Of a stretch of 64,000 nt of DNA, positions 38,978-54,548 are shown in pieces. This DNA comes from a virus (taxonomy: Duplodnaviria > Heunggongvirae > Uroviricota > Caudoviricetes). Numbering within the stretch: position 1 is the first letter of the stretch; every line of letters starts with the position of its first letter. A program made the translations under genes and the position numbers. The notes beneath the pieces were generated by a model. The model was not told the DNA's origin, ran no database searches, and was given only the letters and a program-made list of their open reading frames with translations. Location of the stretch: IMG/VR virus record IMGVR_UViG_3300043436_001089; one strand, written 5' to 3'.

Positions 38978-40470
38978 AAATCAGACATTTAATGGAAGGC
39001 ACTGAGCCAAAGATGCCCGGCGCACCCAGTGGTATACAAATTATGACACCTCAGCAATTCGTTGCTAAAGCTGGTGACATGCCCGGTGAAGAATCAGAAG
39101 AAGGTGTGGCGGAAGTTAGTGATGCTACGCTAACCAGTTATCTAACAAAATTAGATAGAGATAACCTTAAGCACAGAATGGATCCCACAAAACGCAGTGA
39201 CGCAAAACGTATGAAAAGTGGTCCTAATTTTGTTAAAGCGTTTACCAAATTGGATAATAGAAAGCAAGGTGTGGCGGAAGGTGAAGAACACTTATCAAGA
39301 ATTCGTAAACTATCTGGCTTAGAAGAAGCAACTAAACTACCAGCACAAAGTCGTGAGTTTGGTGGTGATGAGTTTCAAGACTATATGAAGCGTATTGTCG
39401 GTACACCCGATGTAGACAAAGCAGGTAATGTCAAGACTGACAAGAAGGGCAATGAAAAGTATGTGTCTGGTAAAACTAAGAGTGACAGATACAAGATGCC
39501 CTACATCCATCGTTCAAGTGTAGTGTCATACTTAAGTCCTGATGGTAAGACATATGATGAAGACGCAGTTAAGAAGACATTAGCAATTCGTCCTAAAGCA
39601 TTATTAAAGCAAAACGAAAAGATGAAGCACAGTAACGGTGAGTTTGAACAATTCTTTAACGTTGGCTTTGCAGCATTGACTGGTATCGCACTAGATGAAC
39701 AAACTAACAACTTAATCATTGTTAATACATGTCCAGGTGCTGGCTCATGTAAAGTAGATTGTTTCGCTATGAAGGGTGGTAAAGTTCAGTTCCAAGGTCC
39801 GTGGCAAAGTGACGGTCGTATCTTGACATATCTATTGAACGACCCAGATGGTTTCTTCAACCAACTAAGTGCCGAGATTACAAAAGAATCTGAAGCAGGT
39901 AAAAAGGGCGATAAGAAATTCCCTAATGGTTGGCAAACAACTGTTCGTTGGCACGATGCTGGCGACTTCTTCAGCCCAGAATACTTAGACTTAGCATTGA
40001 AGATGGCTGCAAAGCACCCTGATGTTAAGTTCTATGCCTACACTAAGATGGCTGGCGCCGCTCTTGCTAAAAAGCCAGACAACTTCATTATCAACTGGAG
40101 TGAAGGTGCTCATACAAGCCAAGAGAAACAAGTCAAGGCAAGCGATGCTAACTTAGATACAACTAAGAACAGTCGCATTGTCCCTGACGAACTATTCCAA
40201 GATTTGTTAGTTAAGGACGAAAAGAAGAACTTAGTTAAAGGGGAACAAGGCCAATGGCAAGTACAACCTGACAAGTTACCTGAACTAAAACAAAGATTGG
40301 CCAGTGAGTATGGACTAAGTGCTAACAGTATCTTATCATATGATGAATATATGGCTAAGCGCAAATCAATCCCTCAAGGTATGAAGTACAATGTTATCGT
40401 TGCCCCGGGTGAAGGTGATATCAGTGCTAATGACCAAAATATTATATCAACATTGCTATTGAGACACTAA
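38974..40470 (+). CDS. Hypothetical 498-aa protein (plus-strand island)
   Basis: Shine-Dalgarno AGGAA before ATG 38974. A Cys cluster CPGAGSCKVDC is present. No family recognised. Confidence 0.5.
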   Translation: MKIRHLMEGTEPKMPGAPSGIQIMTPQQFVAKAGDMPGEESEEGVAEVSDATLTSYLTKLDRDNLKHRMDPTKRSDAKRMKSGPNFVKAFTKLDNRKQGVAEGEEHLSRIRKLSGLEEATKLPAQSREFGGDEFQDYMKRIVGTPDVDKAGNVKTDKKGNEKYVSGKTKSDRYKMPYIHRSSVVSYLSPDGKTYDEDAVKKTLAIRPKALLKQNEKMKHSNGEFEQFFNVGFAALTGIALDEQTNNLIIVNTCPGAGSCKVDCFAMKGGKVQFQGPWQSDGRILTYLLNDPDGFFNQLSAEITKESEAGKKGDKKFPNGWQTTVRWHDAGDFFSPEYLDLALKMAAKHPDVKFYAYTKMAGAALAKKPDNFIINWSEGAHTSQEKQVKASDANLDTTKNSRIVPDELFQDLLVKDEKKNLVKGEQGQWQVQPDKLPELKQRLASEYGLSANSILSYDEYMAKRKSIPQGMKYNVIVAPGEGDISANDQNIISTLLLRH

Positions 40471-41286
40471 TAACAACTGATCCATCGTATACAAGTTACG
40501 CATATAGGGTGATACGTTCTCTAATACAGAGACCTCAATATCACCCTTTCTTCTTGGGCCCTTTATTACGTCAAAGTCAACATCATTGACTTTCTGAAAT
40601 AAGTTAACAATTTCTTTGACAGTATATCCCACACCATGACCTAGACATTCTATACCATTACTAGGTTTCTCAATTGCTTGCATCAATGCATCGCATATCT
40701 CATTGACATGAACATAGTCCCTGACACAAGTTCCGTCGCTTGTTCTTTCGTAGTCAGTACCAAAGATAGTAAACTCACCGGTCTCACGTGCTTTTATTAA
40801 ATTGTACATTAACCCGTCAGGATTAGTTGGAGCAAAGCCATCACTACCAATCACGTTGTAAAAACGAAAGATGGTATGTGGTGTAGGTCTGTGTTTTGTG
40901 CAGAATTCTTTAACAACATCCTCTGCCGCACGTTTACTAATACCATAAGCACTTTCACAACCATCTGCGGCACCGGTGCTAGCAAAGATAAAGTTCTTGG
41001 TCTTTATCTTATTCAATATATTCATAGTACCATTCAGGTTAGTAATGTAGTATTGAATAGGTATATGTTCGCTCTCTCCGACATTGACCAATGCAGCCAA
41101 ATGAATGACTGCATCATAATCGTTATCTAATACAAACTGTCTACGAATGTCTATTGTATTATGAGCTTTAGGTTCGATTTGCGGAGGGTTAATATCAAGC
41201 CCGTGAACTTCATATTCATCTTGTAACATCTTTGTTAGATGTGAACCAATGTAACCCGAGTTACCTGTAATTAAAATCTTCTTCAT
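40456..41286 (-). CDS. NAD-dependent epimerase/dehydratase (short-chain, GalE-like)
   Basis: Rossmann motif ITGNSGYIGSHL and a catalytic YGISK (YxxxK). 276 aa. Confidence 0.8.
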   Translation of the reverse strand: MKKILITGNSGYIGSHLTKMLQDEYEVHGLDINPPQIEPKAHNTIDIRRQFVLDNDYDAVIHLAALVNVGESEHIPIQYYITNLNGTMNILNKIKTKNFIFASTGAADGCESAYGISKRAAEDVVKEFCTKHRPTPHTIFRFYNVIGSDGFAPTNPDGLMYNLIKARETGEFTIFGTDYERTSDGTCVRDYVHVNEICDALMQAIEKPSNGIECLGHGVGYTVKEIVNLFQKVNDVDFDVIKGPRRKGDIEVSVLENVSPYMRNLYTMDQLLLVSQ

Positions 41287-42647
41287 AATCCATCGAACAA
41301 GCTTGCACCTGTTTCTTCCTCTTCTGGTCTAAATGTAGGGTCTTTACTCAAGTAAGTATCGTTGTCGGTATACCATACGTTGATAAACTTATACTTGTTT
41401 GACAGCACTGATTCAAAATCCTCACGTGCTAAATGTTTGCGACCTAAGTCTTTGATATAATCACGGTACTTGATTGTCTCATATGTGTTGATCTTTGCCG
41501 AATTCGTATTACTGCGCTTTCCCACAAAGTCATCTAAAAACTTCACCCACTTAAGTGCTACTTGGTCGTCAAGTTGTTTGACATAATCAAGTGCCAAAGA
41601 AGGTTGATCTATTGCATACAACTGTTTGATTGTACTGGCTGCGTTACTAACATGAACTTTGTGATAGAAAATACTGTCAAAGTTATCTGACCAGTCTTGG
41701 TTATCTAACACAACACAAGGCATATGACCCAGACATTCTAAAAATGCAAAGGGATAGTTTTCACGCAAACTGGGCATAAAGAACACACTAGCACTACGGA
41801 CAAAGTCTACTTTCTCTTTACCGGTGATGCCTGCTTTGATTTCATAATCAGTAATACCCGCGTCTTGAAATGCTTTCTCGAACTTCTTTTGCCCGTTACT
41901 GTTAGTCATTACTTTACACGGTAATTGAGCTTCCTTCATAACTTTAATGTATGCTTCTGGGTTCTTGCCCTCTTCCCATCTACCAATGAACAATACACCC
42001 TTCTTGTCCCCTGTGTATTCTTCTAACAAGCCACGTTCACTCATTGGCATAGGTAGTAACTGGCAGTTAGTTGCACCATGTTTAGTTAGTTCATCAATGT
42101 TCTTTTGACTTTGCGTACCGATAATGATATCACTGAACTCCATATGCTTGTTATAGAAGTTGTGATAGCTATCCAAGAACACATCACTACCTTGACTTTC
42201 GCGGAAGATCATGCTATGCAAGTGAGTATAGAACACTACTGGAATATACTTGTTGACTGTCATTGCATACGCCGCAGTCATTGCTTCTTGTGTGTTGCAA
42301 ACAATCATGTCATATGCATTTTCTTCAAATGCTTCTAACAATGCTGTCCTAAAGTTGATAATCTTTTCAAAGTTTACGGTATCGCTAAATGCAAACGTAG
42401 CAGTATGGTTGTTGTATCGTAGTGGTTCTAAGGGCCATACTAAATTAGCACCTGCGTTTTCTACTACTTTGTCAAAAGTACCAGTCGGTGCTTTGTCTAA
42501 GATGATATCGACTTTCCAATTCAATCGACTACACATTTCTGTAAAGCTTTTACAGAATGAACCAATGCCCCCGTGGGGGATAAAGTGCTGGTCGCTTATT
42601 AAGAATGCAATTCGTTTATTATACAGTTTCATTCTGTCTTGCCCCAT
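41283..42647 (-). CDS. Glycosyltransferase, GT-B fold (GT4-like)
   Basis: FIGRWEEGKNP is an EX7E-type GT4 motif. 454 aa. Confidence 0.65.
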   Translation of the reverse strand: MGQDRMKLYNKRIAFLISDQHFIPHGGIGSFCKSFTEMCSRLNWKVDIILDKAPTGTFDKVVENAGANLVWPLEPLRYNNHTATFAFSDTVNFEKIINFRTALLEAFEENAYDMIVCNTQEAMTAAYAMTVNKYIPVVFYTHLHSMIFRESQGSDVFLDSYHNFYNKHMEFSDIIIGTQSQKNIDELTKHGATNCQLLPMPMSERGLLEEYTGDKKGVLFIGRWEEGKNPEAYIKVMKEAQLPCKVMTNSNGQKKFEKAFQDAGITDYEIKAGITGKEKVDFVRSASVFFMPSLRENYPFAFLECLGHMPCVVLDNQDWSDNFDSIFYHKVHVSNAASTIKQLYAIDQPSLALDYVKQLDDQVALKWVKFLDDFVGKRSNTNSAKINTYETIKYRDYIKDLGRKHLAREDFESVLSNKYKFINVWYTDNDTYLSKDPTFRPEEEETGASLFDGL

Positions 42648-42832
42648 TTAATTTTGAGCCAAATGCGTTCATGAATGTAGTAGTCAATACTTAATAATAC
42701 ATGCAATGCAGTAGCAAAGCCTGCCGAATTACCTAAATTTCCCGTGAACATATATGTCCAAAAAATTGTAAATAACCATGCAGTAAGTCTGTACGTTATC
42801 ATTCTAACTACCGTTCTTTTTTTAGTTTCCAT
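42629..42832 (-). CDS. Small membrane protein
   Basis: 67 aa with two hydrophobic helices. Confidence 0.4.
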   Translation of the reverse strand: METKKRTVVRMITYRLTAWLFTIFWTYMFTGNLGNSAGFATALHVLLSIDYYIHERIWLKIKWGKTE

Positions 42833-43068
42833 TATACTATTCCTTTAAGTTTTGCTATTATAAATTCATTTTTTTTGTACCAGCGATCTTCAAACATCAC
42901 ATCGCCTGGGCCAAGTAACATAGCAGTTTGCTTATATGCATTTTCCATACATATAGTCTTACCACTAATGTGACATTTTTTCGGGAAGATTGCATATTTA
43001 AGTTCTGTACCTACACAGCATCTTTTAAAAGAATCTCCCATCGTTACACTGCCTATACTGTCTAGCAT
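42832..43068 (-). CDS. Hypothetical small Cys-containing protein
   Basis: 78-aa ORF. Confidence 0.4.
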   Translation of the reverse strand: MLDSIGSVTMGDSFKRCCVGTELKYAIFPKKCHISGKTICMENAYKQTAMLLGPGDVMFEDRWYKKNEFIIAKLKGIV

Positions 43069-43072
43069 TATG

Positions 43073-43255: not shown

Positions 43256-43485
43256 GTGTCAACTCCGTATACCTGTTTAATCCATTGCCTCATTGAGATA
43301 TTTTGAAACTCAACATTACTGTCACGCTTGCCACCTGGGTAAACAACAAACAGTTCGTTAGCCACATCTTTAATAATCAACTCAGCGAACTTATCAGCAT
43401 GTTCTACTCCCATCCATTTGCCGCTTGTATCAGTACCGGCATTCTTCATCATTTCTTTAATTCGTTCATTCATCAGGTGCCCCAT
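43252..43485 (-). CDS. Hypothetical small protein
   Basis: 77-aa ORF. Confidence 0.4.
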   Translation of the reverse strand: MGHLMNERIKEMMKNAGTDTSGKWMGVEHADKFAELIIKDVANELFVVYPGGKRDSNVEFQNISMRQWIKQVYGVDT

Positions 43486-44321
43486 TCGTTCTTAAACAAC
43501 GGTACTTGAAGTCTGTCACTGTAGCGCCATCCTCTGTTCATTGCCGCGATTGCTACATTCTTAGCGTTCATGCTATATAATGATTCAACCCCACCGCAAG
43601 GCATCAAGTATACGGGACCAGTAAAGCCACGCTTACGATATTCGTCAACTGCTTGTTCTGCTTCTCGTACATCATCTTCTGTAGCAACTACGAATTTCAA
43701 ATAAACAAAACCATACTGCTTATACTGAGAAATTACGTCAGGACAAATTGCTTCTTCCCACTTCTCACCGCTAATAGATAGCTTAGGACTGACTGAAAAA
43801 GTGATAGCATCTTTAGCACGATTGCGTTGCCATTCACGTATGTAGTTACCAAACTCCGGAGTAATGAGTTGTGTACCATTTGTCTCAAAGGTCATCTCTT
43901 TGAGACTTCTCATTTTCTCATGTGAAAGTAAGTCAGGATACGCTCTTTGCCATCCGAGAAGAGGTTCGCCGCCCGTAATAACAAGGTGCTCATCCATCCA
44001 ACGACCTCTAGGAAGTGTACCAACAATGCTGTCAGCAATAGAATCGGTGTCAAGCACAGGACTAAGATGTTTAAAAGCAGGGTCCCAAGATGCATAACTA
44101 TCACATCCCGTACTGACAAGTGGTAAGGATTTATAATCTGTAAAAGTTTCTGCTTTAATTGCAATTGTTTCCCTTTCTAAGCTCATTTCTCCCTTTGGCA
44201 TACCAAAGCCACCGCAAGTAAAGTTGCAACCGAATGTTCGTAAGAACACACTAGGGACTCCCATAAACTTGCCTTCACCTTGAATGCTGTAGAATAATTC
44301 TGAAATTTTAAGTTGACTCAT
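43473..44321 (-). CDS. queE: 7-carboxy-7-deazaguanine synthase QueE-like radical SAM enzyme (atypical Cys spacing)
   Basis: ELFYSIQGEGKFMGVPSVFLRTFGCN, HLVITGGEP, FETNGT and SVSPK align with E. coli QueE blocks. The cluster motif reads CNFTC and the third Cys is about 37 residues later (STGCDSY). Confidence 0.7.
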   Translation of the reverse strand: MSQLKISELFYSIQGEGKFMGVPSVFLRTFGCNFTCGGFGMPKGEMSLERETIAIKAETFTDYKSLPLVSTGCDSYASWDPAFKHLSPVLDTDSIADSIVGTLPRGRWMDEHLVITGGEPLLGWQRAYPDLLSHEKMRSLKEMTFETNGTQLITPEFGNYIREWQRNRAKDAITFSVSPKLSISGEKWEEAICPDVISQYKQYGFVYLKFVVATEDDVREAEQAVDEYRKRGFTGPVYLMPCGGVESLYSMNAKNVAIAAMNRGWRYSDRLQVPLFKNEWGT

Positions 44322-45396
44322 AATTTTTTATACTGTGTAAGTTTCCCAAGATAATTCTAGGGCTGTTGAAGATCGGATCTTGTAATAGATCCTGCAATTC
44401 TTTCTTTTCCAATTCGGGCATTTCAAAATTTGTATGAAATGCAGAGTCAGACAAGTGACCCCATTGTACTACTAAGTTGAAGTAAACGCTAGTCAAATGG
44501 CTATATTCAAGTTGCCATTTTGCAAAGTCTACTATCTCTTTGTAGTTGTTGCGCTGTACAGTGAAGTTAGTTTGGAACTGTTTTAAATTTTTAAATGACC
44601 CATTCTTTATGATTTCATTCAATGATTCTAAGTTCCTTTTCACTTTATCTAGTGATCCGTTTTTCCGTACAACTGAGTAAGTGTCATTAGTTGCCGCATC
44701 AATACTGATATTGATATGACTGATGCTATCCCACAAATGTTGCATGTCATTTAATCGAGAGTCTGTCATTAAGATACCGTTAGTTAACAATTTCAATGAT
44801 AGATTTTCATTAGGTTCTAGATTCTTAATATAGTTCCAATAGGTAGGACTAGCGAATGCATCACCGCTGCCTGTGATGTTCAACGTTAGCTTTTCACCTC
44901 GACTTAACAGATAGTCAATCAATTCTTTGACTCGATTATGCACACGTGTTATCAATGCATTTTCGTCTAATTGAAACAATATCAATTCATTTCTACAGCT
45001 AGGGCATTGTAAGTTACATGATTGGTCATAACTAAAGTTAATAACAATAGGCTGTCGTGCTTTCTCATGTTGAAGCATAGGTAAAGGAACTATGTATCCC
45101 GGTATATGCTTCCCATTAAGTATAGAGTTAATGAAAGGACAATGGTCATTACATTCAGTAAACTTACCCTTATCCATATCATTGATTAATGATACTCTGT
45201 TGAAGTTAGTTAGTATCTCTTCCGGAGTATCAGTTAACACATTGCCGAACATCTTAGGTAACCAAGAAAAACAACAGACAGATATATCACCTGAAGGGTG
45301 TATCTCAATATATTTTGATATACGGTAGCATCCATAACTAGTTAGTTTGGATTCAGGAACTATATACTTATCTGCTGATTTTATAACGTAATGCAT
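44308..45396 (-). CDS. Radical SAM enzyme with extra N-terminal Cys-rich domain
   Basis: Canonical CNLQCPSC (CX3CX2C). N-terminal Cys cluster CCFSW...CNDHCPF. 362 aa. Confidence 0.65.
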   Translation of the reverse strand: MHYVIKSADKYIVPESKLTSYGCYRISKYIEIHPSGDISVCCFSWLPKMFGNVLTDTPEEILTNFNRVSLINDMDKGKFTECNDHCPFINSILNGKHIPGYIVPLPMLQHEKARQPIVINFSYDQSCNLQCPSCRNELILFQLDENALITRVHNRVKELIDYLLSRGEKLTLNITGSGDAFASPTYWNYIKNLEPNENLSLKLLTNGILMTDSRLNDMQHLWDSISHINISIDAATNDTYSVVRKNGSLDKVKRNLESLNEIIKNGSFKNLKQFQTNFTVQRNNYKEIVDFAKWQLEYSHLTSVYFNLVVQWGHLSDSAFHTNFEMPELEKKELQDLLQDPIFNSPRIILGNLHSIKNYEST

Positions 45397-45546
45397 TACC
45401 AGTGCCTAATCACGCCTGCAACAATAAACAAGTTTGTTGTTATGTATGACAACACAATTAAAGAACGAATGATAGCAACACTGTCAGACTCCTGATCCGT
45501 AGCGCCGGCTTTCTCCCCTAGTGCTTTCGCCCAGATACGCCAAAGA

Positions 45547-47737: not shown

Positions 47738-48040
47738 TTATCGGTATAATTCCAAAAGCATCTTATACTTATCATACGCTTCACTGATTGCCGGGTGTCT
47801 TTTACGCATCCATGCTTCGCTTCTCTGATCTTGCCACAGTAGATCATACTCATGGTCTATCCTGACCAATTGTTCAAATCCACTACGTGTAATTTCTATT
47901 TCAATAAGTTCTTCACGGTTAGTGTAGTAACCAGCAGTTTGATTGTAACCATAGTTAATAGTCTCAAAATTACGGTCACGAACTACCTGCACATGTTTGA
48001 CACTATATTTATTAATGAATGAATCGTAAAAATTACTCAT
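47738..48040 (-). CDS. Hypothetical protein
   Basis: 100-aa ORF. Confidence 0.4.
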   Translation of the reverse strand: MSNFYDSFINKYSVKHVQVVRDRNFETINYGYNQTAGYYTNREELIEIEITRSGFEQLVRIDHEYDLLWQDQRSEAWMRKRHPAISEAYDKYKMLLELYR

Positions 48041-48510
48041 TGTTGACCTCTTTTGTTGGTTTCACTATCATAGACACGTTTACGTAGGCTACTGGAGCTG
48101 AAGGAGTGATCTCTACCGTTAAAGACAATTTCGATGGATCTGAGCTTGCATTCACCTTTACCACTGAATTCCTTATCGGCATATTCGACACCAAGGATTC
48201 TGACATCCACCGGTAGTATGAGTAAGAGGTCAACGAGGTCCTGCTCTGTACTATACACAACCACTTCGTCAACGTAACGACACGCCGCCAACTGGATTTG
48301 ACGTTCCACAATGCTTTGAACAGGCTTGTTTTTAGTGTCAGGCCTATCAATTGTAGGATCACTTTGAAGTCCGCAAATAAGGTAGTCGCAATGGTTTCTT
48401 GCTTCACTGAGCATTGCGATATGTCCTGCGTGAAGCATGTCGAAGGTTGAGAATGTGATTCCAATTCGTTTGCCTTCTTGTTTAAGTTTTTTAACATGAT
48501 TAAATATCAT
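48037..48510 (-). CDS. Cytidylyl/adenylyltransferase (HldE/RfaE domain II or TagD-like)
   Basis: TFDMLHAGH (HxGH) in a 157-aa single-domain protein. Confidence 0.65.
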   Translation of the reverse strand: MIFNHVKKLKQEGKRIGITFSTFDMLHAGHIAMLSEARNHCDYLICGLQSDPTIDRPDTKNKPVQSIVERQIQLAACRYVDEVVVYSTEQDLVDLLLILPVDVRILGVEYADKEFSGKGECKLRSIEIVFNGRDHSFSSSSLRKRVYDSETNKRGQQ

Positions 48511-48847
48511 CTGGTAGTATTTCCTCTAACTCAGTTTCATCCTCAAAGTAATGAACATGATAAGTTTTACCTGCATGTTCATATACATCAGTGAAAGAAC
48601 GTTGATTGTTGGTTGACTCAATTGGTTCCAATAATCTGAACACAGTAAACAAGTGCTCACGTTCAGTACCCTCAATCTTACGTTTATCAGGTCCCATGAC
48701 TTTACGCATGAACTCTTTGAGTTTGATAGGATCACTAGCGATTCTATCAGCAGCCTCTTGAATCCAGTCAAGATTTGTTTTTGCAGTCACAGTTACGTCC
48801 TTGGTTACAGTTGCCGGTGCAATCGCTCTTCGGTAATCTACGAACAA
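48500..48847 (-). CDS. Hypothetical protein
   Basis: 115-aa ORF. Confidence 0.4.
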   Translation of the reverse strand: MFVDYRRAIAPATVTKDVTVTAKTNLDWIQEAADRIASDPIKLKEFMRKVMGPDKRKIEGTEREHLFTVFRLLEPIESTNNQRSFTDVYEHAGKTYHVHYFEDETELEEILPDDI

Positions 48848-48892
48848 CTGTTATAGCGATGACAACTACTATTAGTAGAATAATGACTGTCA

Positions 48893-49570
48893 TTACTTAC
48901 CTTTGTTTGCAATCTGCAAGAACTCTGCACGTGCCGCTGGATCAGTTTTGAACCCGCCGCCTAATCGACAAGTAACAGTGCTTGAACCTGTATCTTCTAC
49001 GCCGCGACTCTTAACGCAATAGTGTTGTGCGTCAATCATAACTGCCACGTCCTCTGTTTCAAGTATGAATTGTAGCGTATGGAAAATCTGCTCTGTGAGG
49101 CGCTCTTGAATCTGCGGGCGTTTTGAAAAATACTCAACAATACGGTTGATCTTACTGAGTCCCAAGACTTTTTGCTTAGGAACATATGCAACAGTAGCCA
49201 AGCCGTCAATAACGACAAAGTGATGTTCGCAATTACTTTGGACGTTGACGTTACGCTCAACGACCATTTCGTTGTAGTGCATTTTGTTGTCCACGGTAGT
49301 GCATTTTGGGAACGCTTCATAATCTAAACCCCAGAAGATTTCGTTGACATACATCTTAGCAACACGCTTTGGTGTGTCAATCAAACTATCGTCTGTTAAG
49401 TCAAGACCGAGCGTTTCCATAATATATGCAAAGTGAAGTTCGATTTTATCAATCTTTTCTTTACGGTCTATACTATTAGGTTTTGTAGGTGTCTCAACAC
49501 CCATTTTGACTAAGTATTCGTGTACTTTTTGACCCAACTCTGGGTCTGTTTTTGTTTTATTATAACTCAT
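48893..49570 (-). CDS. folE: GTP cyclohydrolase I (FolE)
   Basis: CEHHFVVIDGLATVAYVPK, GLSKINRIVEYFSKRPQIQERLT and HYCVKSRGV align with E. coli FolE. The start is taken at MSYNKT after Shine-Dalgarno AAGGAAGG. Confidence 0.85.
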   Translation of the reverse strand: MSYNKTKTDPELGQKVHEYLVKMGVETPTKPNSIDRKEKIDKIELHFAYIMETLGLDLTDDSLIDTPKRVAKMYVNEIFWGLDYEAFPKCTTVDNKMHYNEMVVERNVNVQSNCEHHFVVIDGLATVAYVPKQKVLGLSKINRIVEYFSKRPQIQERLTEQIFHTLQFILETEDVAVMIDAQHYCVKSRGVEDTGSSTVTCRLGGGFKTDPAARAEFLQIANKGK

Positions 49571-49636
49571 AGATAACCTTCCTTTGTGATGGTTTTGTTT
49601 TGACATTGTGCTACCGTTGTGTAGCACAAGTATTTA

Positions 49637-49930
49637 TCATTCTTCGTCAACGATACAAAGAATATCTTCTTCTTTCATGACGATGAAATCTTGATTACCA
49701 ACTGTAATCTTTTGAGGACCTGATTGATTGTAGATTACAACGTCTCCCTCTTTTACTTCAGGTGTAGCGAAGGTTCCGTCCTCTAGTCTGCGACCTTTGC
49801 CTACCTTGAATACAGTGCCACGGGGCAATTTCTCTTGAGCCGAATCAGGGATATAAAACCCCGATTCAGTTCTAGTCTTTGCTTCCTGCGGTTTGACCAA
49901 GATGCGGTCATTTGCTGGAGTCAATGCCAT
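49637..49930 (-). CDS. groES: Co-chaperonin GroES (Cpn10)
   Basis: The 97-aa pattern ...DRILVKPQEAKTRTESGFYIPDSAQEKLPRGTVFKVGKGRRLEDG... matches the GroES mobile loop and beta-barrel. Confidence 0.8.
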   Translation of the reverse strand: MALTPANDRILVKPQEAKTRTESGFYIPDSAQEKLPRGTVFKVGKGRRLEDGTFATPEVKEGDVVIYNQSGPQKITVGNQDFIVMKEEDILCIVDEE

Positions 49931-49932
49931 GA

Positions 49933-50127
49933 TTAAGCCTTAGCTTTTGCTTCTGCACGTGCGGCTTTTTCTGCTGTAATTTCATTACGGCGAGCCTTAA
50001 CTGCTTTAGCTAGTTCTGCTAGTGCTTTGCGGGCACGTGTGCCTGCTGCCGCATTACCTGCAACAAACTTAGTATTTTCTGCGTTGTATGCAGCCAGTTG
50101 TGTTTCGATATCATTGTGTGCGCTCAT
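49933..50127 (-). CDS. Small basic Ala/Lys-rich protein (histone-like tail)
   Basis: The start is trimmed to MSAHNDIE after Shine-Dalgarno AAGGAG. The C-terminus is AEKAARAEAKAKA. Confidence 0.4.
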   Translation of the reverse strand: MSAHNDIETQLAAYNAENTKFVAGNAAAGTRARKALAELAKAVKARRNEITAEKAARAEAKAKA

Positions 50128-50137
50128 TAGTTTCTCC

Positions 50138-51325
50138 TTAAAATTTTGCTTCACGTGTGTGTTTGCGATAGTCTGTTGACATACGCAAATATTGTTCACC
50201 CTTGCCTTCAAGGATGTCACAAATTCTGTCTATAGTCCCGTCATTGCGTTGTGCGATAGCACCTTGATTATAATGAGGATCTCTTAGTAATGGGTGCAGT
50301 TTGTTAATAGCATCGTCAATAGACCAAGGCACGTAAAGTCTAGATGCATCATTTGCAAAAGTTTCTGGGAAACTCCTATAAGCAGGATACAAGACATTGC
50401 AACCAAGAGCATCCGCTTCGGATACGGTGTTGCTAACCCAGTCTTGTAAAGCGCAATTAAAGACAACACGACTATTGTTGACAATATTATAATAATCATT
50501 TTTACTCAAGTCCTCATGCAACGTAAGTAATCCGCGACTTACTAAGTCACGTGTGCGATCCATGTAACTATCGTTATTAGATTTCAGTTTGCTACCAGAG
50601 CAAACACAGAACTCTACGTTGTTACCATAACGCTCATGCCATTCTTCAATTAGATCCATATAGAAGTCAGGCTGCTTCTCTTGATCCCAACGTGCTGAAA
50701 AGACAACACGCATTGCCCGTTCTTCAAACGGTTTAATTTGATGCTGTACACGCTCACGTACTTCTTCCATGCCAAATGCTAGTCCACTGATATTGTAGAT
50801 CGGGACTTCCCAACCTGCAATCTTCATGTGCATGACCATTTCTTCATTAGTTGCGAGGATCGCACCACCACTCTGGCTAACAGCTTCGCAGACCATCTTC
50901 TCATAGGAACCCATCCACTTGGCCATCCCCCAAACGTGAACAAAGTCATCAGGGTCGATTGACTGCGCAAGACAGCGCACATATATCTTAGGGCGATGTG
51001 CTTCACTAACTTGATTAAGAATATAAGGCAAGCTCTCAAAGCCCGGCTGAAACATATCTTCAAAATAGATAACATCTTCATTATTGATTTTACCTTGTTT
51101 CATCCACATAACAAGATTCATCATCTGACTCATAGCAAAATAGCTACGACCATGTGCATCTAGTACTTGACCGGTTACAATAGATTCTTCATTGTCTAGT
51201 GTTTCACCGGGTACGATTACATACTGAATCTTGCGTTTCTCAAATGCACGTGTGTTCCACTGCTGTAGTTGCAATGTGTACCGTGCTTTATAGGGTTCTA
51301 GTCCCATGTAAATAAGTCTACGCAT
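50138..51325 (-). CDS. Putative glycosyltransferase (GT-B-like)
   Basis: 395 aa. ARWDQEKQPDFYMDLIEEW resembles the GT4 EX7E region. Weak evidence. Confidence 0.45.
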   Translation of the reverse strand: MRRLIYMGLEPYKARYTLQLQQWNTRAFEKRKIQYVIVPGETLDNEESIVTGQVLDAHGRSYFAMSQMMNLVMWMKQGKINNEDVIYFEDMFQPGFESLPYILNQVSEAHRPKIYVRCLAQSIDPDDFVHVWGMAKWMGSYEKMVCEAVSQSGGAILATNEEMVMHMKIAGWEVPIYNISGLAFGMEEVRERVQHQIKPFEERAMRVVFSARWDQEKQPDFYMDLIEEWHERYGNNVEFCVCSGSKLKSNNDSYMDRTRDLVSRGLLTLHEDLSKNDYYNIVNNSRVVFNCALQDWVSNTVSEADALGCNVLYPAYRSFPETFANDASRLYVPWSIDDAINKLHPLLRDPHYNQGAIAQRNDGTIDRICDILEGKGEQYLRMSTDYRKHTREAKF

Positions 51326-52085
51326 TATTTTTTCTTTCTATATCTTCTTCGTTGCATTCTTCACCATATTGAATCTCTACGATTCTACAAGGTGTCTTAT
51401 ATGGATTACTTAGTCTATGCCAATCACCTTGTGGAATTTGTACTTGACTGAATGTTGTTAGTTCCATTGAAGGCAATGCATAGCCACTAGGCATAGTCAT
51501 GTCAAGGATACAATTACCTTCAGTCACGTGCCAAAATTCGTGTCGCTTGAAATGTCGTTGCATACTCAGACTTTGACCGGGATTTACTGTTAATTCTTTT
51601 ACCTTGCATCCTTGCACATCATGTAGTATACGATAGTATCCCCATTGGCGCAACGTTTTTGGTTGTTTCCATTCACGTAGAATCCAACTGCTCGAATTCT
51701 TTTTATCATTTCCACCGACACCAAATACAAATTCTATGTTGTCGTCTTCAACATCCATTTCTGGAATGTTATCATGTGTTCTATCTCCGCCGTTAGCAAA
51801 GATAATAGTTGCTTCTGGGAATTTCTCCCTCACTGCGTAGATAGCATACTTTGCAGTATTGTCTACATCGTCAAAATTTATTACCCAATCTACTGGATCT
51901 AAATTTCCTACAATGGTTAGTCTTTCATCAAACGGCATAAAAGGTTGGCCCTTTTTACGAGCCAACCAATCATCACTGTTGAGACCAACTACTAAGTTGT
52001 CGCCCAATTCTTTAGCGGCTTTGAGATAACTGACATGTCCAGAATGTACAGGGTCAAAGCCTCCAGTGACTAATACAATTTTCAT
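51318..52085 (-). CDS. Heptose-1-phosphate adenylyltransferase-like (HldE domain II) fused to C-terminal cupin
   Basis: VTGGFDPVHSGHVSYLKAAKELGDNLVVGLNSDDW...VDWVI aligns closely with E. coli HldE domain II. The C-terminus has the cupin motif QRHFKRHEFWHVTEG. Confidence 0.65.
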   Translation of the reverse strand: MKIVLVTGGFDPVHSGHVSYLKAAKELGDNLVVGLNSDDWLARKKGQPFMPFDERLTIVGNLDPVDWVINFDDVDNTAKYAIYAVREKFPEATIIFANGGDRTHDNIPEMDVEDDNIEFVFGVGGNDKKNSSSWILREWKQPKTLRQWGYYRILHDVQGCKVKELTVNPGQSLSMQRHFKRHEFWHVTEGNCILDMTMPSGYALPSMELTTFSQVQIPQGDWHRLSNPYKTPCRIVEIQYGEECNEEDIERKNNA

Positions 52086-52288
52086 CGAATAATTGCTTCT
52101 GCCCACATGTCTTTGGGTGACTTGTTAGTCATCCATTTCTCAAACTGACGAAACGCAAAGCTTCGGCGGTCATAGAGAGTTGACTCGTCAAACTTGTATC
52201 CATAGTCCTGACAGAATTCAAGATATTTTTCCAAGTCTTCAAAAATTTGACGGACACGTGGATTGGGTTGAAAAGAAGGTTTTGCCAT
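52082..52288 (-). CDS. Hypothetical small protein
   Basis: 68-aa ORF. Confidence 0.35.
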   Translation of the reverse strand: MAKPSFQPNPRVRQIFEDLEKYLEFCQDYGYKFDESTLYDRRSFAFRQFEKWMTNKSPKDMWAEAIIR

Positions 52289-52301
52289 TTTAATAATTCC
52301 T

Positions 52302-52757
52302 TTAAATAGCGAGTTGTTGATAAGGTTGAGTTAAGTTATAATGAATCGTGGCACCGTTCTCACCGTCTTCGCTTACGGTAATAATGATTTCACGTTCGGG
52401 ATAGCGAGTAGCGATTTGCTCATAGAGGTCATCACTAATCATTTCACACGACTTATAATTCAATTCAAGTGTTCCGCCTTTATAGAGATTCTCTAACCAG
52501 CGTTTAAATTGAATGAACTCAATATCCCTGTCGTTGTGAAATACTTCAATCGCCACATTAAAGTGAAAAATGTGACGATGTGGGGTTCCTAGAAAGCTAA
52601 CATCATATTCGTCACCTGTCGCTAGGTTAAAATCTGATGCTGCCGCGGGGTACTTATGAATACCTTCTTTCTGAAAGGTCACAAAAATCATACGTTTCGC
52701 TTTATCTTTAATGCGATTACGTGCTTCTACCATTGCATGGTGTCGTTGTTCAATCAT
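52302..52757 (-). CDS. Hypothetical protein, possible T-fold (PTPS/QueD-related)
   Basis: LGTPHRHIFHF loosely resembles the PTPS HxH zinc site context. Weak evidence. Confidence 0.3.
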   Translation of the reverse strand: MIEQRHHAMVEARNRIKDKAKRMIFVTFQKEGIHKYPAAASDFNLATGDEYDVSFLGTPHRHIFHFNVAIEVFHNDRDIEFIQFKRWLENLYKGGTLELNYKSCEMISDDLYEQIATRYPEREIIITVSEDGENGATIHYNLTQPYQQLAI

Positions 52758-52966
52758 CTGTCATCCCCAAAGTCTACTGTATCATGGTCGTGATCCCATT
52801 GAGCACGATTCATTTGTCTAAGTTCAGTCATGTATTTTACACTAGTAGTACGCAGTTCTGCAAGTTTTTTGGGATCTGCGTTTCCCGATTTCTCTAATTG
52901 AAATATCTGATTTTCTACTATTCTGTGTGATTCTTCTAATGTTTTAATACGTTGAGTGTATGGCAT
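52754..52966 (-). CDS. Hypothetical small coiled-coil protein
   Basis: 70-aa ORF. Confidence 0.35.
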   Translation of the reverse strand: MPYTQRIKTLEESHRIVENQIFQLEKSGNADPKKLAELRTTSVKYMTELRQMNRAQWDHDHDTVDFGDDR

Positions 52967-52967
52967 A

Positions 52968-54548
52968 TTATTCTCCTAAAACTTCATTGATTGCGTCATC
53001 ACTATCCTCAATGATTTCATCAATCTCTGGCTCACTACTATTTACTTCAAATAATTGGTCAAACATAGTCATAGCATTTTCAGTTTTCTTACCGCTGATA
53101 CCTTGACTACCTGATTGAAACTGCTTCCAGTAACTGTTATGATAGTTGATAACATCTAATGCTTCTTGTTTAGTCTTCTTACTAAAGATTTCATCAACAA
53201 TATTTTTAAAAAAGCTATCACCGTCTAATTTATGAACTAACATCTTAGGCACAACACCCTGCGCATATTGACGATTAGCTTCTTGAACAGCATTCATATG
53301 CATCCAAACATTATGACTCTGAATCAATGTATAGCTCAATGTATCCCAACTAGTTTTAGTTTCTTTACCATGTGCACCTAAGAAGCCTTGACCCCTATAG
53401 CATACGTCCTTAACGACTAGTTTATCAGTTACTGGACTATCTGTAAAGAGTTTATGGACGCCGTCATTAATAATAGCATCACTAAACTTACGTTGGTCAC
53501 CACCGGGCATACCTGTTTGAGGTACACCGTACTTCTTATCATCTAGAGTTTTTTCCATACTATACGCCCACTTTTTATTGTGTTCAATACTAGTGTTGAA
53601 ATAACCTAGACCTTTAGCCGCACTATAGAACGGGCTTGCACAGTCAAATGTAATTTGAAGCTTTGGATTATGATACTTGCGGATAGCTTTCTGAATGTCA
53701 GTGAACAATACTGCATACTCTAAAATACTTGTACCTAAACAGTGAATCAAGTCATGCTTGCCTTCTTGTAATAGACCATCATGGATGATATCAACCATAC
53801 GTGTTAGCATTAAGTGAACGTCAATTTTGTTCTGTCCTCCAAACGCCCATCCGTTGAAGTGATTATCCGGATAGATATTTGGATCGCAATACTTTTTCAT
53901 TTCAAGATACCAATCATCAGATTGTGTATGATTGCGACCTTGCAATACGTTTAAGAACTTGCATTTACCCGAACGATGCTTTATAAAGTATTCGTTGTTA
54001 ATATGTGTAGCAGTGATAGCTTCTTCAATAGTACTAATACCGTGAGCACTCTTGCCTGTCTTAGGATCCTTGATATGAAAGGTAGTCAAGGATTGTGATG
54101 GGATATCAAGACACATACCATAGTCCATGTATGTGTCCATCCACGTGAGAACTTCTTTACGTTTCTTCATAGCACGTGGGCAGTTAGGATCTTTCCAATC
54201 AGCAGGCCACTGACATTTCAAAATCTGAAATCCACCTGAGTCACCCAACATGAAAGTACCTTCTTCACGTTCACGTATGATACTCTCACTAGAATCATTT
54301 TTCATTGGATCTAAGTTAGCATGACCAGCAGAGTACAAACCCCACTTATAAGTATACACACCTTCTTTACTATTTAAGAAATTTAATTTTTCAACATCAC
54401 CATTAAACCCTGCAGGAATACGTGATTGGTCAAAATAGTTTTCACCTTTACGCTGTTTACCTAAGCCGGCAATATAGAACGAACTTACTGCTGGTAAAAA
54501 CAGTGCCCATTCAGGGTCTTGTTTTGCTGATAGATTATCTTGTTGCAT
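52968..54548 (-). CDS. dpdA: DpdA-like DNA-guanine transglycosylase (TGT superfamily)
   Basis: FMLGDSGGFQILK matches the catalytic DSGG[FY]Q motif of tRNA-guanine transglycosylases. It lies next to folE, queD and queE, as in phage 7-deazaguanine DNA modification clusters. 526 aa. Confidence 0.65.
   Translation of the reverse strand: MQQDNLSAKQDPEWALFLPAVSSFYIAGLGKQRKGENYFDQSRIPAGFNGDVEKLNFLNSKEGVYTYKWGLYSAGHANLDPMKNDSSESIIREREEGTFMLGDSGGFQILKCQWPADWKDPNCPRAMKKRKEVLTWMDTYMDYGMCLDIPSQSLTTFHIKDPKTGKSAHGISTIEEAITATHINNEYFIKHRSGKCKFLNVLQGRNHTQSDDWYLEMKKYCDPNIYPDNHFNGWAFGGQNKIDVHLMLTRMVDIIHDGLLQEGKHDLIHCLGTSILEYAVLFTDIQKAIRKYHNPKLQITFDCASPFYSAAKGLGYFNTSIEHNKKWAYSMEKTLDDKKYGVPQTGMPGGDQRKFSDAIINDGVHKLFTDSPVTDKLVVKDVCYRGQGFLGAHGKETKTSWDTLSYTLIQSHNVWMHMNAVQEANRQYAQGVVPKMLVHKLDGDSFFKNIVDEIFSKKTKQEALDVINYHNSYWKQFQSGSQGISGKKTENAMTMFDQLFEVNSSEPEIDEIIEDSDDAINEVLGE

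Follow-up and report, generated by a model that had tools for sequence, protein, structure and literature searches.

A GT4-type glycosyltransferase linked to DpdL and DpdA in diverse phages points to a possible, uncharacterised sugar-bearing deazaguanine base

Introduction

The closest described system is that of Cellulophaga phage phiST, a 79-kb phage whose FolE, QueD, QueE, DpdL and DpdA3 constitute a 2'-deoxy-7-deazaguanine (dDG) pathway and whose DNA contains 100% dDG (302,000 per 10^6 nt) (Cui, Hutinet et al., NAR 2023, PMC10516641). DpdL, with the signature LxxxHRHxF, lacks the catalytic Cys of PTPS/QueD and is the proposed CDG decarboxylase of this pathway; E. coli expressing DpdL and DpdA of phage ACP17 produced no dDG, a result that the authors put down to a possible missing enzyme (PMC10516641). 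phiST is the sole DpdL phage with measured DNA, and its cluster contains no glycosyltransferase, epimerase or nucleotidyltransferase.

In T-even phages, hydroxymethylcytosine is glucosylated by alpha- and beta-glucosyltransferases, and, to our knowledge, hydroxymethylated pyrimidines are the only bases on which glycosylation of phage DNA has been described. The T4 genes beta-gt and 42 lie in the uvsX-gp41 region of the map. Queuosine in tRNA is glycosylated as mannosyl- and galactosyl-queuosine, the mannosyltransferase GTDC1/QTMAN being a GT4-family enzyme, and bacterial DpdA is assisted by the ATPase DpdB. In cyanobacteria and Chlorobium, FolE, a PTPS and a reductase precede the pteridine glycosyltransferase, a GT-1/GT-4-like enzyme that transfers sugars from UDP-sugars to the side chain of tetrahydrobiopterin (e.g., in Synechococcus PCC 7942) (PMC5683033).

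Here we analyse a 64,000-nt stretch of DNA (hereafter the window; IMG/VR record IMGVR_UViG_3300043436_001089) from an uncultured freshwater-type jumbo phage, of which the Pseudomonas phage PA5oct is a distant relative. A preliminary description had read its gene content as a candidate pathway that decorates the deazaguanine, or another DNA base, with a sugar and/or a sulfate, with mere adjacency of the sugar genes as the alternative. The new point is comparative: a 395-aa glycosyltransferase, GT395, is a linked partner of DpdL/DpdA.

Results

The block is part of a run of 23 minus-strand ORFs with mostly overlapping junctions or gaps below 25 nt (the largest is ~150 nt). In our preferred reading it forms one operon-like array whose product is a modified guanine that goes into the DNA of the phage itself. 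All genes listed in the preliminary description are present on the minus strand where it had placed them, apart from one mended nucleotidyltransferase frame, whereas DpdL and an Hc1-like gene had been overlooked. A sigma-70 consensus promoter-like site (TTGACA-17-TATAAT, minus strand, 55700..55728, 12/12 consensus positions) lies upstream of the array, separating its first gene from PolB; its role is suggestive only, since the total of such sites (65) is not above that in shuffled sequences (58.6 +/- 7.5). The conserved left-hand neighbour, a phrog_12062 protein (54925..55656), is probably outside the chemistry; it is annotated as a virion 'structural protein' in PA5oct and as a sliding clamp in Phosso.

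The assignment of FolE, QueD, QueE and DpdA to a DpdA-type 7-deazaguanine DNA-modification cluster is borne out by family matches for FolE, GTP cyclohydrolase I (48893..49627; Pfam GTP_cyclohydroI, 1.3e-60), QueD of the PTPS/CPH4 synthase family (45547..46101; Pfam 1.4e-16, phrog_2389 4e-37) and the CDG synthase QueE (43473..44321; phrog_2076 2.8e-52, NCBIfam QueE models), and by the fold and catalytic motifs (GDSGGFQ, D103; FDCAS, D302) of a divergent 526-aa DpdA-like DNA-guanine transglycosylase (52968..54548). No QueC is present within the block, as had been noted. The conclusion that CDG is the delivered base has to be revised, however: DpdL, a QueD paralogue (52302..52757) with the signature LGTPHRHIF, is kept in 43/43 relatives and is 35% identical to its phiST homologue (E 9e-12), 55% to that of ACP17, 53% to that of PA5oct and 70% to that of Phosso (LxxxHRHxF is found in 73/76 cases). 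Since DpdL is the hallmark of the branch without QueC, whose product in phiST is dDG, the predicted base is of the DG type rather than CDG. Like phiST, the window has the same precursor genes without QueC, an LxxxHRHxF DpdL, an adjoining TGT-fold transglycosylase and a QueD with CxxxHGY rather than CxxxHGH, which also holds for other DpdL phages. In contrast, phiST DpdA3 has only 259 aa and is marginally alignable with the window's enzyme (hhalign 29%), and the window phage is known from sequence.

Among cultured phages, PA5oct (Wroclawvirus) is closest to the window; the two PolB proteins are about 47% identical. The shared part of its cluster (EST35_0314 to EST35_0322) has the same order as in the window, i.e., PolB, phrog_12062 protein, DpdA-like protein (32% identity), GT395 homologue (EST35_0317), DpdL (53%), short SDR and QueE. 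Unlike the window, it has a phosphoribosyltransferase, and this stretch is without FolE, QueD, the second glycosyltransferase, nucleotidyltransferases, sulfotransferase and second radical-SAM enzyme. The DNA of PA5oct is resistant at G-containing restriction sites. We counted this resistance in favour of a glycosylated deazaguanine, along with the dDG measured in phiST, which has no GT395, and the inactivity of ACP17 DpdL plus DpdA in E. coli.

GT395 (50138..51325) is a GT4-type GT-B glycosyltransferase with a distinctive N-terminal EPxxxRYT domain. Both GT-B enzymes of the block (the other, GT4-like and 454 aa long, at 41283..42647) score weakly as single sequences, but taken as a family 7/8 members match Glycos_transf_1 (best 8e-12), and the family profile matches the GT4 enzyme SdgB at 1.3e-6; with the epimerase described below, this confirms the sugar enzymes named earlier. 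GT395 homologues form 491 clusters at 50% identity (E <= 1e-10). A profile search matched GT395 to none of the known DNA glycosyltransferases, those of T4 included, a result that we counted against a glycosylated deazaguanine. Its GT4-typical NDP-sugar-binding Arg/Lys and Glu residues (invariant R212, E216, K217, E303 and E321) are retained down to 20-24% identity, which argues for a predicted active enzyme. It is therefore very unlikely that GT395 is a non-catalytic or accessory partner of DpdA or DpdL with dDG still as the final base, despite the bacterial precedent of DpdB, the very close spacing or overlap of the genes and the failure of ACP17 DpdA and DpdL to work in E. coli when no other phage gene was supplied. 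Moreover, phiST attains 100% dDG without GT395, and the co-occurring epimerase makes sense only with a sugar donor in use.

In every relative examined, GT395 adjoins DpdL, DpdA or QueE. The same linkage is found in PA5oct-like, ACP17, X1/BUDD, BCSR5, BUCT-ZZ01 and Phosso phages and several metagenomic lineages, about ten independent phage lineages with the window's included. GT395 and DpdL are 0 to about 3 kb apart in all these named phages as well as in the metagenomic jumbo phages L086 and L087 and five MAG-binned contigs; in Phosso the glycosyltransferase overlaps the DpdL stop codon, with DpdA 170 kb away. The hosts are Pseudomonas, Acidovorax, Xanthomonas, Burkholderia, Sinorhizobium and Synechococcus, the gene order varies, and PolB can be as little as about 25% identical to that of the window. 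QueE is present in all GT395 lineages and DpdA in all where a transglycosylase was recognisable, and an SDR epimerase recurs within the GT395-DpdL cluster in distant lineages. A search of 50,697 phage records returned full-length GT395 homologues from DpdL-positive genomes and from no others. In BUCT-ZZ01, GT395 is 62% identical to that of the window and DpdL only 37%, so the pair came together more than once. GT395 thus belongs to the deazaguanine genes of the window and of nine or more further phage lineages, and at least some of the sugar genes are genuinely linked rather than merely adjacent. Three DpdL phages outside the relatives of phiST have no GT395 gene within +/-9 kb, so the glycosyltransferase is not obligatory for the DpdL branch; this, too, was counted against glycosylation.

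The remaining sugar genes are linked to varying degrees. The extended-SDR NAD-dependent epimerase/dehydratase (40456..41286; Pfam 5.6e-32; TGxxGxxG and YxxxK motifs) and the 454-aa glycosyltransferase are, like GT395, DpdL, FolE, QueD, QueE and the 157-aa nucleotidyltransferase, present in 100% of the spanning clade loci. In cyanophage BUCT-ZZ01 the deazaguanine cluster includes a homologue of the 454-aa enzyme (42% identity); that of X1 lies outside the cluster, beside NAD-salvage genes. Domain matches support all three nucleotidyltransferases described earlier. The stand-alone HldE-domain-II/TagD/ECT-type enzyme of 157 aa (48037..48510; rfaE_dom_II 2e-22; 21/21 in the clade) has ethanolamine-phosphate and glycerol-3-phosphate cytidylyltransferases as its nearest solved relatives; the overlapping ORF 48033-48497 is in the wrong frame. 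Many phages that have no deazaguanine genes carry members of its family, and this spread and the position of the X1 454-aa homologue were both counted against glycosylated deazaguanine. The other two are variable fusions: an HxGH nucleotidyltransferase with a ManC-type mannose-6-phosphate-isomerase cupin (51318..52106; 23/43), and an APS-kinase-like P-loop domain with an NMNAT/cytidylyltransferase-like HxGH domain (46177..46974; 10/21), in which domain searches detected no ATP-sulfurylase domain.

The adjacent gene at 46997..47716 encodes a probable PAPS-type sulfotransferase. For this assignment speak the PRTGST and RRRNIIDQITSFY motifs, invariant across the 8-member family, and the best Foldseek match, a sulfotransferase (5.9e-5); against it, P-loop kinases score nearly as well and Sulfotransfer_3 reaches 20.1 bits, below the 27-bit Pfam cutoff. 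The family is rare (8 homologues in 5.8 billion proteins; 2/21 relatives), and the gene, where present, always adjoins the kinase-nucleotidyltransferase gene. The weak assignment, the rarity and the missing ATP-sulfurylase domain of the fusion were counted against the sugar/sulfate reading, and sulfation of the base is speculative. The second radical-SAM enzyme (44308..45396) does carry a Cys-rich domain, of the SPASM/twitch type and N-terminal, and is found at one locus, in a single relative (L001); the GroES co-chaperonin (49637..49930) is likewise present as reported, but is a sporadic insert (1/43) unrelated to the modification pathway. The sulfotransferase and these two genes are all rare accessories. 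The Hc1-type histone-like gene (49933..50220; 5/43) is a further sporadic insert, probably unrelated to the pathway, and its true start is probably an internal ATG. Small unknowns of 126 aa (54548..54928; most relatives), 68 aa (52082..52288; 43/43, MAG-binned relatives too) and 78 aa (Cys-rich; 42832..43068, between QueE and the second glycosyltransferase; 7/7) are widely kept, and those of 70 aa (52754..52966; 22/43), 115 aa (48500..48847; 8/21) and 100 aa (47738..48040; 5/21) are variable. Of the linked pathway proposed earlier, the association of GT395 with DpdL, DpdA and QueE and the recurrent epimerase therefore stand, whereas the block is not one fixed pathway, as several members are sporadic or variable across relatives.

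An alternative explanation is that the phage makes plain dDG as phiST does, and that the glycosyl-, nucleotidyl- and sulfotransferases target glycans of the host envelope, proteins of the virion or the metabolism of the host and share an early/middle gene region only because of how the genome is organised. In its favour are the full set of phiST-type genes, the wide 157-aa family, the X1 homologue outside the cluster and the use of the region as an insert hotspot in the window and its relatives (GroES, Hc1, GMP reductase, membrane protein, homing-type ORF). Nevertheless, we regard it as unlikely: GT395 and DpdL stay linked in about ten lineages with very different hosts and gene orders, an envelope-directed enzyme is not expected to remain constant across such varied hosts, and other cultured phages have no full-length GT395 homologue. 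Comparison of gene order across related phages also placed no sugar gene near tail-fibre genes or in step with tail-fibre or capsule loci.

Discussion

The linkage of GT395 to deazaguanine genes points to an uncharacterised sugar-bearing deazaguanine base, and a glycosylated deazaguanine in phage DNA is plausible on comparative grounds. We put the probability of the following reading at roughly 45%. By homology, FolE, QueD and QueE would convert GTP to 7-carboxy-7-deazaguanine (CDG), DpdL would process CDG (according to the published proposal, by decarboxylation to 7-deazaguanine), and the divergent DpdA would exchange guanine in DNA for the deazaguanine base. The conserved gene linkage suggests that GT395 transfers a sugar from an NDP-sugar to the deazaguanine-derived base, either once that base is in the DNA or immediately before it is inserted, and that the 454-aa GT4 enzyme, the SDR epimerase and the TagD/HldE-type nucleotidyltransferase, which are fixed in the clade, supply or extend this sugar. 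The lineage-variable nucleotidyltransferase-cupin and APS-kinase/nucleotidyltransferase fusions may tailor or diversify it, and so, in the window's sub-lineage only, may the sulfotransferase and the twitch-type radical-SAM enzyme, much as glucosylation varies among T-even phages. One chemical difficulty is that 7-deazaguanine has neither a hydroxyl nor a side-chain amine, so that its O-glycosylation is not obviously possible.

The T-even parallel comprises a base-modifying module with GT-B enzymes using NDP-sugars and a lineage-variable sugar decoration as counter-defence; in ACP17 and X1, which are T4-like, the cluster sits among the replication genes, with uvsX on one side and the gp41 helicase on the other. 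Unlike in T-even phages, the acceptor would be a purine analogue placed by base exchange rather than a hydroxymethyl-pyrimidine incorporated at replication, and GT395 does not resemble the T4 glucosyltransferases. Since known phage DNA glycosylation is confined to hydroxymethylated pyrimidines and a phage may carry more than one modification, the glycosyltransferases might decorate such another base, with deazaguanine as a second, independent modification. We give this scarcely any credence, because no thymidylate-synthase-like hydroxymethylase turned up, either in the window's annotated ORFs or in the clusters that other lineages carry, and the linkage is specific to DpdL. For the proposed sugar-bearing deazaguanine, glycosylated queuosine may serve as precedent, as there a GT4-type GT-B enzyme sugars a 7-deazaguanine derivative already within nucleic acid; its acceptor, however, is the cyclopentenediol of queuosine in tRNA, and the window has no QueA/QueG-type genes.

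A further alternative is that the product is a soluble metabolite, the glycosyltransferases acting on a free pterin or deazapurine to give a cofactor, signal or nucleoside-like compound. FolE, the PTPS-like T-fold enzymes QueD and DpdL, the SDR and the GT4 enzymes resemble the cyanobacterial/Chlorobium pterin-glycoside pathway, in which GT-1/GT-4-like enzymes likewise follow FolE and a T-fold enzyme of the PTPS family, albeit on free tetrahydrobiopterin and with no linkage to QueE or DpdA (PMC5683033). Synechococcus PCC 7942, which has a pteridine glycosyltransferase, is the host of BUCT-ZZ01, the Phosso DpdL-glycosyltransferase pair is remote from DpdA, and phosphoribosyltransferases in the PA5oct and BUCT-ZZ01 clusters point to free-base chemistry. 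We nonetheless consider this quite improbable: GT395 lineages have QueE throughout and DpdA wherever a transglycosylase is recognisable, the catalytic Cys of PTPS/QueD is missing from DpdL, the SDR belongs to the extended epimerase type, and the DNA of PA5oct is actually modified at G. In addition, the GT395 profile matched no pteridine glycosyltransferase in a PDB copy that may not contain one.

If GT395 does place a sugar on the deazaguanine base, the expected role of the modification would be to shield the phage DNA from restriction enzymes and other DNA-reading nucleases.

Organization of the gene array

The window has a G+C content of 35-41%, and nearly every gene lies on the minus strand. 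The modification genes belong to an unbroken series of 23 minus-strand ORFs running from 55656 to 40456, with the majority of the junctions overlapping or shorter than 25 nt and a widest gap of ~150 nt. The family-B DNA polymerase gene (PolB, 55737-58454) is located upstream of this array, and a promoter-like site matching the sigma-70 consensus at 12 of 12 positions (55728 to 55700) lies between PolB and the first array ORF; the total number of such sites across the window was not above that in shuffled sequence. The array ends at a convergent plus-strand gene (38974-40470) that overlaps the last ORF. Elsewhere the window encodes typical proteins of large lytic phages (DnaK, ClpX, DNA ligase, UvdE, flap nuclease). 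The phage-encoded chaperone-related genes, all on the minus strand, are those for DnaK/Hsp70 (20096-21940; 6e-260), a ClpX-like ATPase (14198-15397) and, inside the array, GroES (49637-49930; a secure assignment). As no nucleotide-level match to the block was found among 50,697 deposited phage genomes, all comparisons were done at the protein level.

Several smaller genes accompany the enzymes. The phrog_12062 protein (54925-55656, minus strand; 10912-11658 in PA5oct; 8532-9272 in contig L099) is always located between PolB and DpdA, and its annotations conflict: it is a virion "structural protein" detected by mass spectrometry in PA5oct and a DNA polymerase III beta sliding clamp in Phosso. 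A protein similar to chlamydial Hc1-type histone H1 (49933-50220, minus strand; Pfam 1.9e-10) is inserted between GroES and GT395, the 395-aa glycosyltransferase discussed below; its listed GTG start overlaps GT395 by 83 nt, so that an internal ATG is probably the real start. Two small minus-strand ORFs between enzyme genes (45396-45686 and 42629-42832) are predicted to contain a hydrophobic helix, and since counterparts of the former are conserved in two relatives (L003 and L059), it is probably a genuine small membrane protein.

Precursor synthesis and DpdL

The genes for FolE, QueD and QueE, i.e., the set for conversion of GTP to CDG, are all present in the block and could be assigned securely, whereas QueC, QueF and ArcS-type downstream enzymes were not found in it. 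The preliminary description had concluded from the missing QueC that CDG would be the base delivered by QueE, but it had overlooked the gene for DpdL (phrog_17812; 52302-52757, minus strand). DpdL, described by Cui, Hutinet and colleagues (PMC10516641), is a QueD paralogue in which the CxxxHGH motif is changed to LxxxHRHxF. The phages possessing it carry FolE, QueD, QueE and DpdA and lack QueC, and the protein was proposed to be a CDG decarboxylase leading to 2'-deoxy-7-deazaguanine (dDG) (PMC10516641). In Cellulophaga phage phiST all G is replaced by dDG (302,000 per 10^6 nucleotides). Expression of DpdL and DpdA of Acidovorax phage ACP17 in E. coli did not lead to dDG, which the authors suspected to be due to the lack of a further enzyme (PMC10516641).

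The window protein contains the sequence LGTPHRHIF, which fits the DpdL motif, and is homologous to the DpdL proteins of phiST (35% identity, 9e-12), ACP17 (55%), PA5oct (53%) and Phosso (70%); 73 of 76 clade members show the motif. Judged by their sequences, the precursor pathway and DpdL place the block in the published DpdL/dDG branch, and the block is very probably a DpdL-type DNA-modification operon. Since the documented product of this branch is dDG, CDG in DNA does not follow from the lack of QueC. The QueD of the window (45547-46101, minus strand) has CxxxHGY instead of the canonical zinc-binding motif CxxxHGH, as do its counterparts in phiST, ACP17, BCSR5, BUCT-ZZ01 and RHph_I1_18.

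A PP-loop ATPase gene just upstream of PolB (60286-60879, minus strand) was considered as a substitute for QueC and rejected. The protein is of the TilS/TtcA type (Pfam ATP_bind_3, 5.8e-35), its likeness to QueC is confined to the PP-loop (PADLOC QueC, 8.7e-7), and although the same position is kept in 34 relatives, the clusters of other lineages have no counterpart. The deazaguanine cluster of Xanthomonas phage X1 also encodes a PP-loop protein, but one of another type (PAPS_reduct family). In the interval separating PolB from the PP-loop gene of the window, a third radical-SAM protein of 495 aa is encoded on the opposite strand (58807-60294, plus); among the relatives, only L001 and L002, the closest two, have it.

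A long, divergent DpdA-like transglycosylase

The 526-aa DpdA-like ORF (52968-54548) had no match in Pfam, PHROG, NCBIfam, PADLOC or PDB sequences. Its sequences GDSGGFQ and ITFDCAS are similar to the two motifs with the catalytic aspartates in tRNA-guanine transglycosylases, and D103 and D302 do not vary in an alignment of 44 sequences, for which distant homologues were gathered by searching with the PA5oct protein. In a Foldseek search with the AlphaFold2 model (pLDDT 82, pTM 0.84), archaeosine TGT was the sole match below 1e-3. With these motifs, the alignment, the model and the structural match, the assignment as DpdA is sound. The profile comparison with hhalign gave 90.7% for the DpdA group of ACP17, X1 and BUCT-ZZ01, to which the protein is homologous, and only 29% for DpdA3 of phiST, which is barely alignable. 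In sequence, these DpdA-like proteins of 510-560 aa look like a long, divergent subfamily separate from the others.

Constant and variable genes in the clade

In IMG/VR, 460 relatives of the DpdA-like protein were found (79-95% identity), and their contigs reach 360 kb; the window clade consists of abundant uncultured jumbo phages. Its gene order is conserved (genes in brackets are variable; small ORFs are named by their length in aa): PolB, phrog_12062, u126, DpdA, (s70), DpdL, s68, (NT-cupin), GT395, a variable gap, FolE, (u115), NT157, (u100), (kinase-NT), (sulfotransferase), QueD, a second variable gap, QueE, s78, GT454, epimerase. GT454 is a second, 454-aa GT4-like glycosyltransferase, NT157 a stand-alone nucleotidyltransferase of 157 aa, and NT-cupin and kinase-NT are nucleotidyltransferases with additional domains. 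When only loci spanning the relevant interval were counted, DpdL, s68 and GT395 were found in 43/43, NT157 and QueD in 21/21, s78 and GT454 in all seven QueE-to-epimerase loci, and GT454 together with the epimerase in all three loci that continue past QueE for at least 3.5 kb. NT-cupin (23/43) and kinase-NT (10/21) are less regular, and Hc1 (5/43), the sulfotransferase (2/21) and GroES (1/43) are rare.

In relatives (L004, L011, L022, L057, L001 and others), the two variable gaps (GT395-FolE and QueD-QueE) contain genes for a 2OG-Fe(II) oxygenase, class II aldolase, FAD-dependent oxidoreductase, SAM methyltransferase and GMP reductase. With its fixed genes and swapped gap genes, the block can be described as a constant core with a diversification hotspot of interchangeable tailoring and metabolic genes. 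Bax-inhibitor-like and YhhQ-like membrane proteins were also seen in the gaps, by eye only. In L022, a bona fide GMP reductase (14993-16024; 2e-147 to human GMPR) is encoded between the glycosyltransferase and FolE and could reduce guanine nucleotide levels for a phage replacing its G.

The second radical-SAM enzyme was securely identified, with an N-terminal SPASM/twitch domain, and has no sequence relative in PDB. It occurs in a single locus of 80 (L001) and in none of the 21 FolE-to-QueE loci, and was for this reason rejected as part of the core chemistry.

Enzymes of possible sugar and sulfate chemistry

The SDR protein of the block is securely assigned to the extended epimerase type (TGxxGxxG and YxxxK motifs), and all three nucleotidyltransferases are genuine HxGH enzymes. 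For NT157 (48037-48510), the closest relatives with solved structures are ethanolamine-phosphate and glycerol-3-phosphate cytidylyltransferases, and NT-cupin (51318-52106) is a ManC-type cupin fusion. The NT157 family is common in phages without deazaguanine genes, and its presence alone therefore says little.

Kinase-NT (46177-46974) contains an APS kinase domain (PF01583, 43.5 bits with a cutoff of 21.1; PDB 2yvu, 3e-6). Its C-terminal domain, with the motifs HEGH and ISATKIR, matches NMNAT/cytidylyltransferase models only, with no ATP sulfurylase catalytic domain detected. Thus, only the APS-kinase half would fit a minimal PAPS synthase, and this assignment was rejected; a role in NadR-like NAD salvage is equally possible.

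The neighboring ORF 46997-47716 adjoins the kinase-NT gene wherever it is present. Its family comprises 8 homologues among 5.8 billion proteins, in which PRTGST and RRRNIIDQITSFY are invariant and compatible with the two PAPS-binding motifs (for 5'-phosphosulfate and 3'-phosphate). The Pfam score of 20.1 bits is under the cutoff of 27 bits, and no PDB sequence was matched. In Foldseek, the best match of the model was a sulfotransferase (5.9e-5), closely followed by adenylate and deoxynucleoside kinases (1e-4 to 8e-4). Its identity as a sulfotransferase is probable, not proven.

Outside the block, a Sulfotransfer_3-like ORF adjoins a homologue of TctC-like periplasmic binding proteins (62536-63165 and 63162-63905, both minus strand). 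This sulfotransferase-like protein (Pfam 1.3e-4, over the 3'-phosphate-binding region) is unrelated to the product of 46997-47716 and present in 13 relatives; the phage may thus carry sulfotransferase-like genes outside the block as well.

Glycosyltransferases of the block

GT395 (50138-51325) and GT454 (41283-42647) are each weak when scored singly. Nevertheless, seven of eight diverse members of the GT395 family match Glycos_transf_1 (PF00534; best 8e-12), the family profile matches the GT4 enzyme SdgB (1.3e-6), and the Arg/Lys and Glu positions of the donor-binding site (R212, E216, K217, E303 and E321) show no substitution even among members only 20-24% identical. The GT395 family is therefore clearly assignable, at the sequence level, to GT4/GT-B. 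GT454 scores 27.6 bits with PF00534 (cutoff 26.4). GT395 has no PHROG match, and no chain of a characterized DNA glycosyltransferase of the T4 alpha- or beta-glucosyltransferase type was among its PDB matches with E <= 1.

The family comprises 491 clusters at 50% identity (E <= 1e-10). A profile search of bacterial genomes with a narrower alignment retrieved only five MAG-binned, phage-like contigs. Partial matches in the Xanthomonas phages PhiXhv and Ep026 were treated as lying outside the family, as the N-terminal domain is absent and the context is an unrelated one of amino-sugar genes (GlmS/deacetylase).

In phage X1 (L092, 106340-121311), the GT454 homologue adjoins NAD-salvage genes (NAMPT, NMNAT, NAD synthase) and a 2OG oxygenase gene; kinase-NT of the window has an NMNAT-like domain, too. 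GT454-type glycosyltransferases may be tied to NAD or ADP-ribose chemistry.

Linkage of GT395 and DpdL in other phage lineages

Because synteny within one clade says little about function, the linkage was sought in other lineages. In the Pseudomonas jumbo phage PA5oct (DpdA 32% identical), the order is PolB, phrog_12062, hypothetical protein, DpdA-like protein, GT395 homologue, DpdL, hypothetical protein, short SDR, phosphoribosyltransferase, QueE. The GT395 gene lies between DpdA and DpdL in the T4-like phage ACP17, adjoins DpdA in the Xanthomonas phages X1 and BUDD and DpdL in cyanophage BUCT-ZZ01 (with a GT454 homologue, 42% identical, in the same cluster), is 2.7 kb from DpdL in Burkholderia phage BCSR5, and overlaps the DpdL stop codon in Sinorhizobium jumbo phage Phosso, where the DpdA-like gene is 170 kb away. 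Two metagenomic jumbo phages (L086 and L087) and the five MAG-binned contigs have GT395 followed by an epimerase, sometimes with an NT157 family member within the cluster.

These lineages differ in gene order, their PolB identity to the window protein goes down to ~25%, and the proteins of BUCT-ZZ01 and the window share 62% identity for GT395 but just 37% for DpdL, so that the linkage does not stem from one transferred cassette. Among all deposited phages, full-length GT395 homologues were found only in genomes that also encode DpdL. The reverse does not hold: phiST and its relatives, Rhizobium phage RHph_I1_18 and Aeromonas phage Ahp1 have DpdL without a nearby GT395. The sole DpdL phage with analyzed DNA, phiST, has no GT395.

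Two DpdL-GT395 clusters encode small type-I phosphoribosyltransferases, those of PA5oct (EST35_0321; L081, 15946-16380) and BUCT-ZZ01 (UTS52039; L083, 7093-7554); no counterpart was found in the window block. Their presence hints at an additional conversion of the deazaguanine base to a nucleotide.

Possible role of the glycosyltransferase

The gene block of the preliminary description was confirmed with the corrections given here. Its interpretation is supported in part: sugar genes and deazaguanine genes are linked, with GT395 accompanying DpdL across lineages, whereas the predicted base is not CDG; the sulfotransferase, the radical-SAM enzyme and GroES, being rare in relatives, are peripheral. 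From this genomic linkage, we consider GT395 to be a functional partner in the DpdL pathway rather than a chance neighbor, with a probability of roughly 0.65.

The most economical reading would be that GT395 phages go one step beyond dDG by attaching a sugar. In the window clade, a second GT4 enzyme, the epimerase and a nucleotidyltransferase are fixed as well, with accessory tailoring genes differing by sub-lineage. We propose only tentatively, on the gene content, that a DNA base ends up glycosylated. 7-Deazaguanine has no hydroxyl group and no obvious O- or N-nucleophile at C7. A C- or N-glycosidic link was considered for this reason, and the linkage may be unusual, for example with the sugar C-linked to the electron-rich pyrrole carbon or attached via N2. 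It is also possible that the reaction of DpdL in GT395 phages is not a simple decarboxylation.

Alternatively, the sugar could be put on a soluble pterin or deazapurine. This has a real precedent in pteridine glycosyltransferases downstream of FolE and PTPS (PMC5683033), and the phosphoribosyltransferases of PA5oct and BUCT-ZZ01 and the GMP reductase of a relative likewise hint at reactions of bases or nucleotides. In a pterin-glycoside pathway, a sepiapterin reductase of the classical SDR type would be expected; the SDR of the block is of the extended epimerase type.

Glycosylation of the DNA base, for its part, would resemble in functional arrangement the glucosylation of hydroxymethylcytosine in T-even phages, although no homology to the T4-type enzymes was seen. 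Glycosyl-queuosine, which occurs in tRNA, is another functional parallel.

The idea of sulfate is based on one probable sulfotransferase, present in ~10% of the relatives, and an APS-kinase domain without sulfurylase. That the sub-lineage of the window has DNA in which a base derived from 7-deazaguanine carries a GT395-attached sugar or short glycan, O-sulfated by the phage sulfotransferase with PAPS from the APS-kinase fusion, is improbable, and sulfated DNA as such appears similarly unlikely.

Significance

To our knowledge, eight 7-deazaguanine derivatives occur in phage DNA, none of them sugar-bearing, and we know of DNA glycosylation for hydroxymethyl-pyrimidines only. In a full-text literature search, no description of a glycosylated or sulfated deazaguanine in DNA and no remark on a glycosyltransferase in DpdL clusters were found. 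The GT395-DpdL pattern is broad and unreported in the literature searched, and the predicted GT4 enzyme belongs integrally to the DpdL branch, in which it is widely conserved. As at least six cultured phages carry the DpdL-GT395 pair, the question is directly testable. If dDG without further decoration were found in the DNA, a new subfamily of long DpdA proteins would still be established, and the tightly linked GT395 would call for a different explanation. If the sulfated-sugar reading were true, DNA would gain its first described example of a glycosylated purine analogue and of a sulfated nucleobase decoration.

With 491 clusters, more than 460 clade contigs and the therapeutic-candidate jumbo phage PA5oct among its members, the breadth of GT395 suggests that a whole class of guanine hypermodification may have been overlooked. 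The DNA of PA5oct is restriction-resistant and is targeted by nucleases sensing hypermodified DNA, one of them specific for modified G. For a 7-deazaguanine derivative in virion DNA, this resistance to restriction is the one indirect indication. An overlooked hypermodification could explain the recognition by these nucleases, the failed heterologous expression of DpdL and DpdA alone, and the evasion of restriction by GT395 phages.
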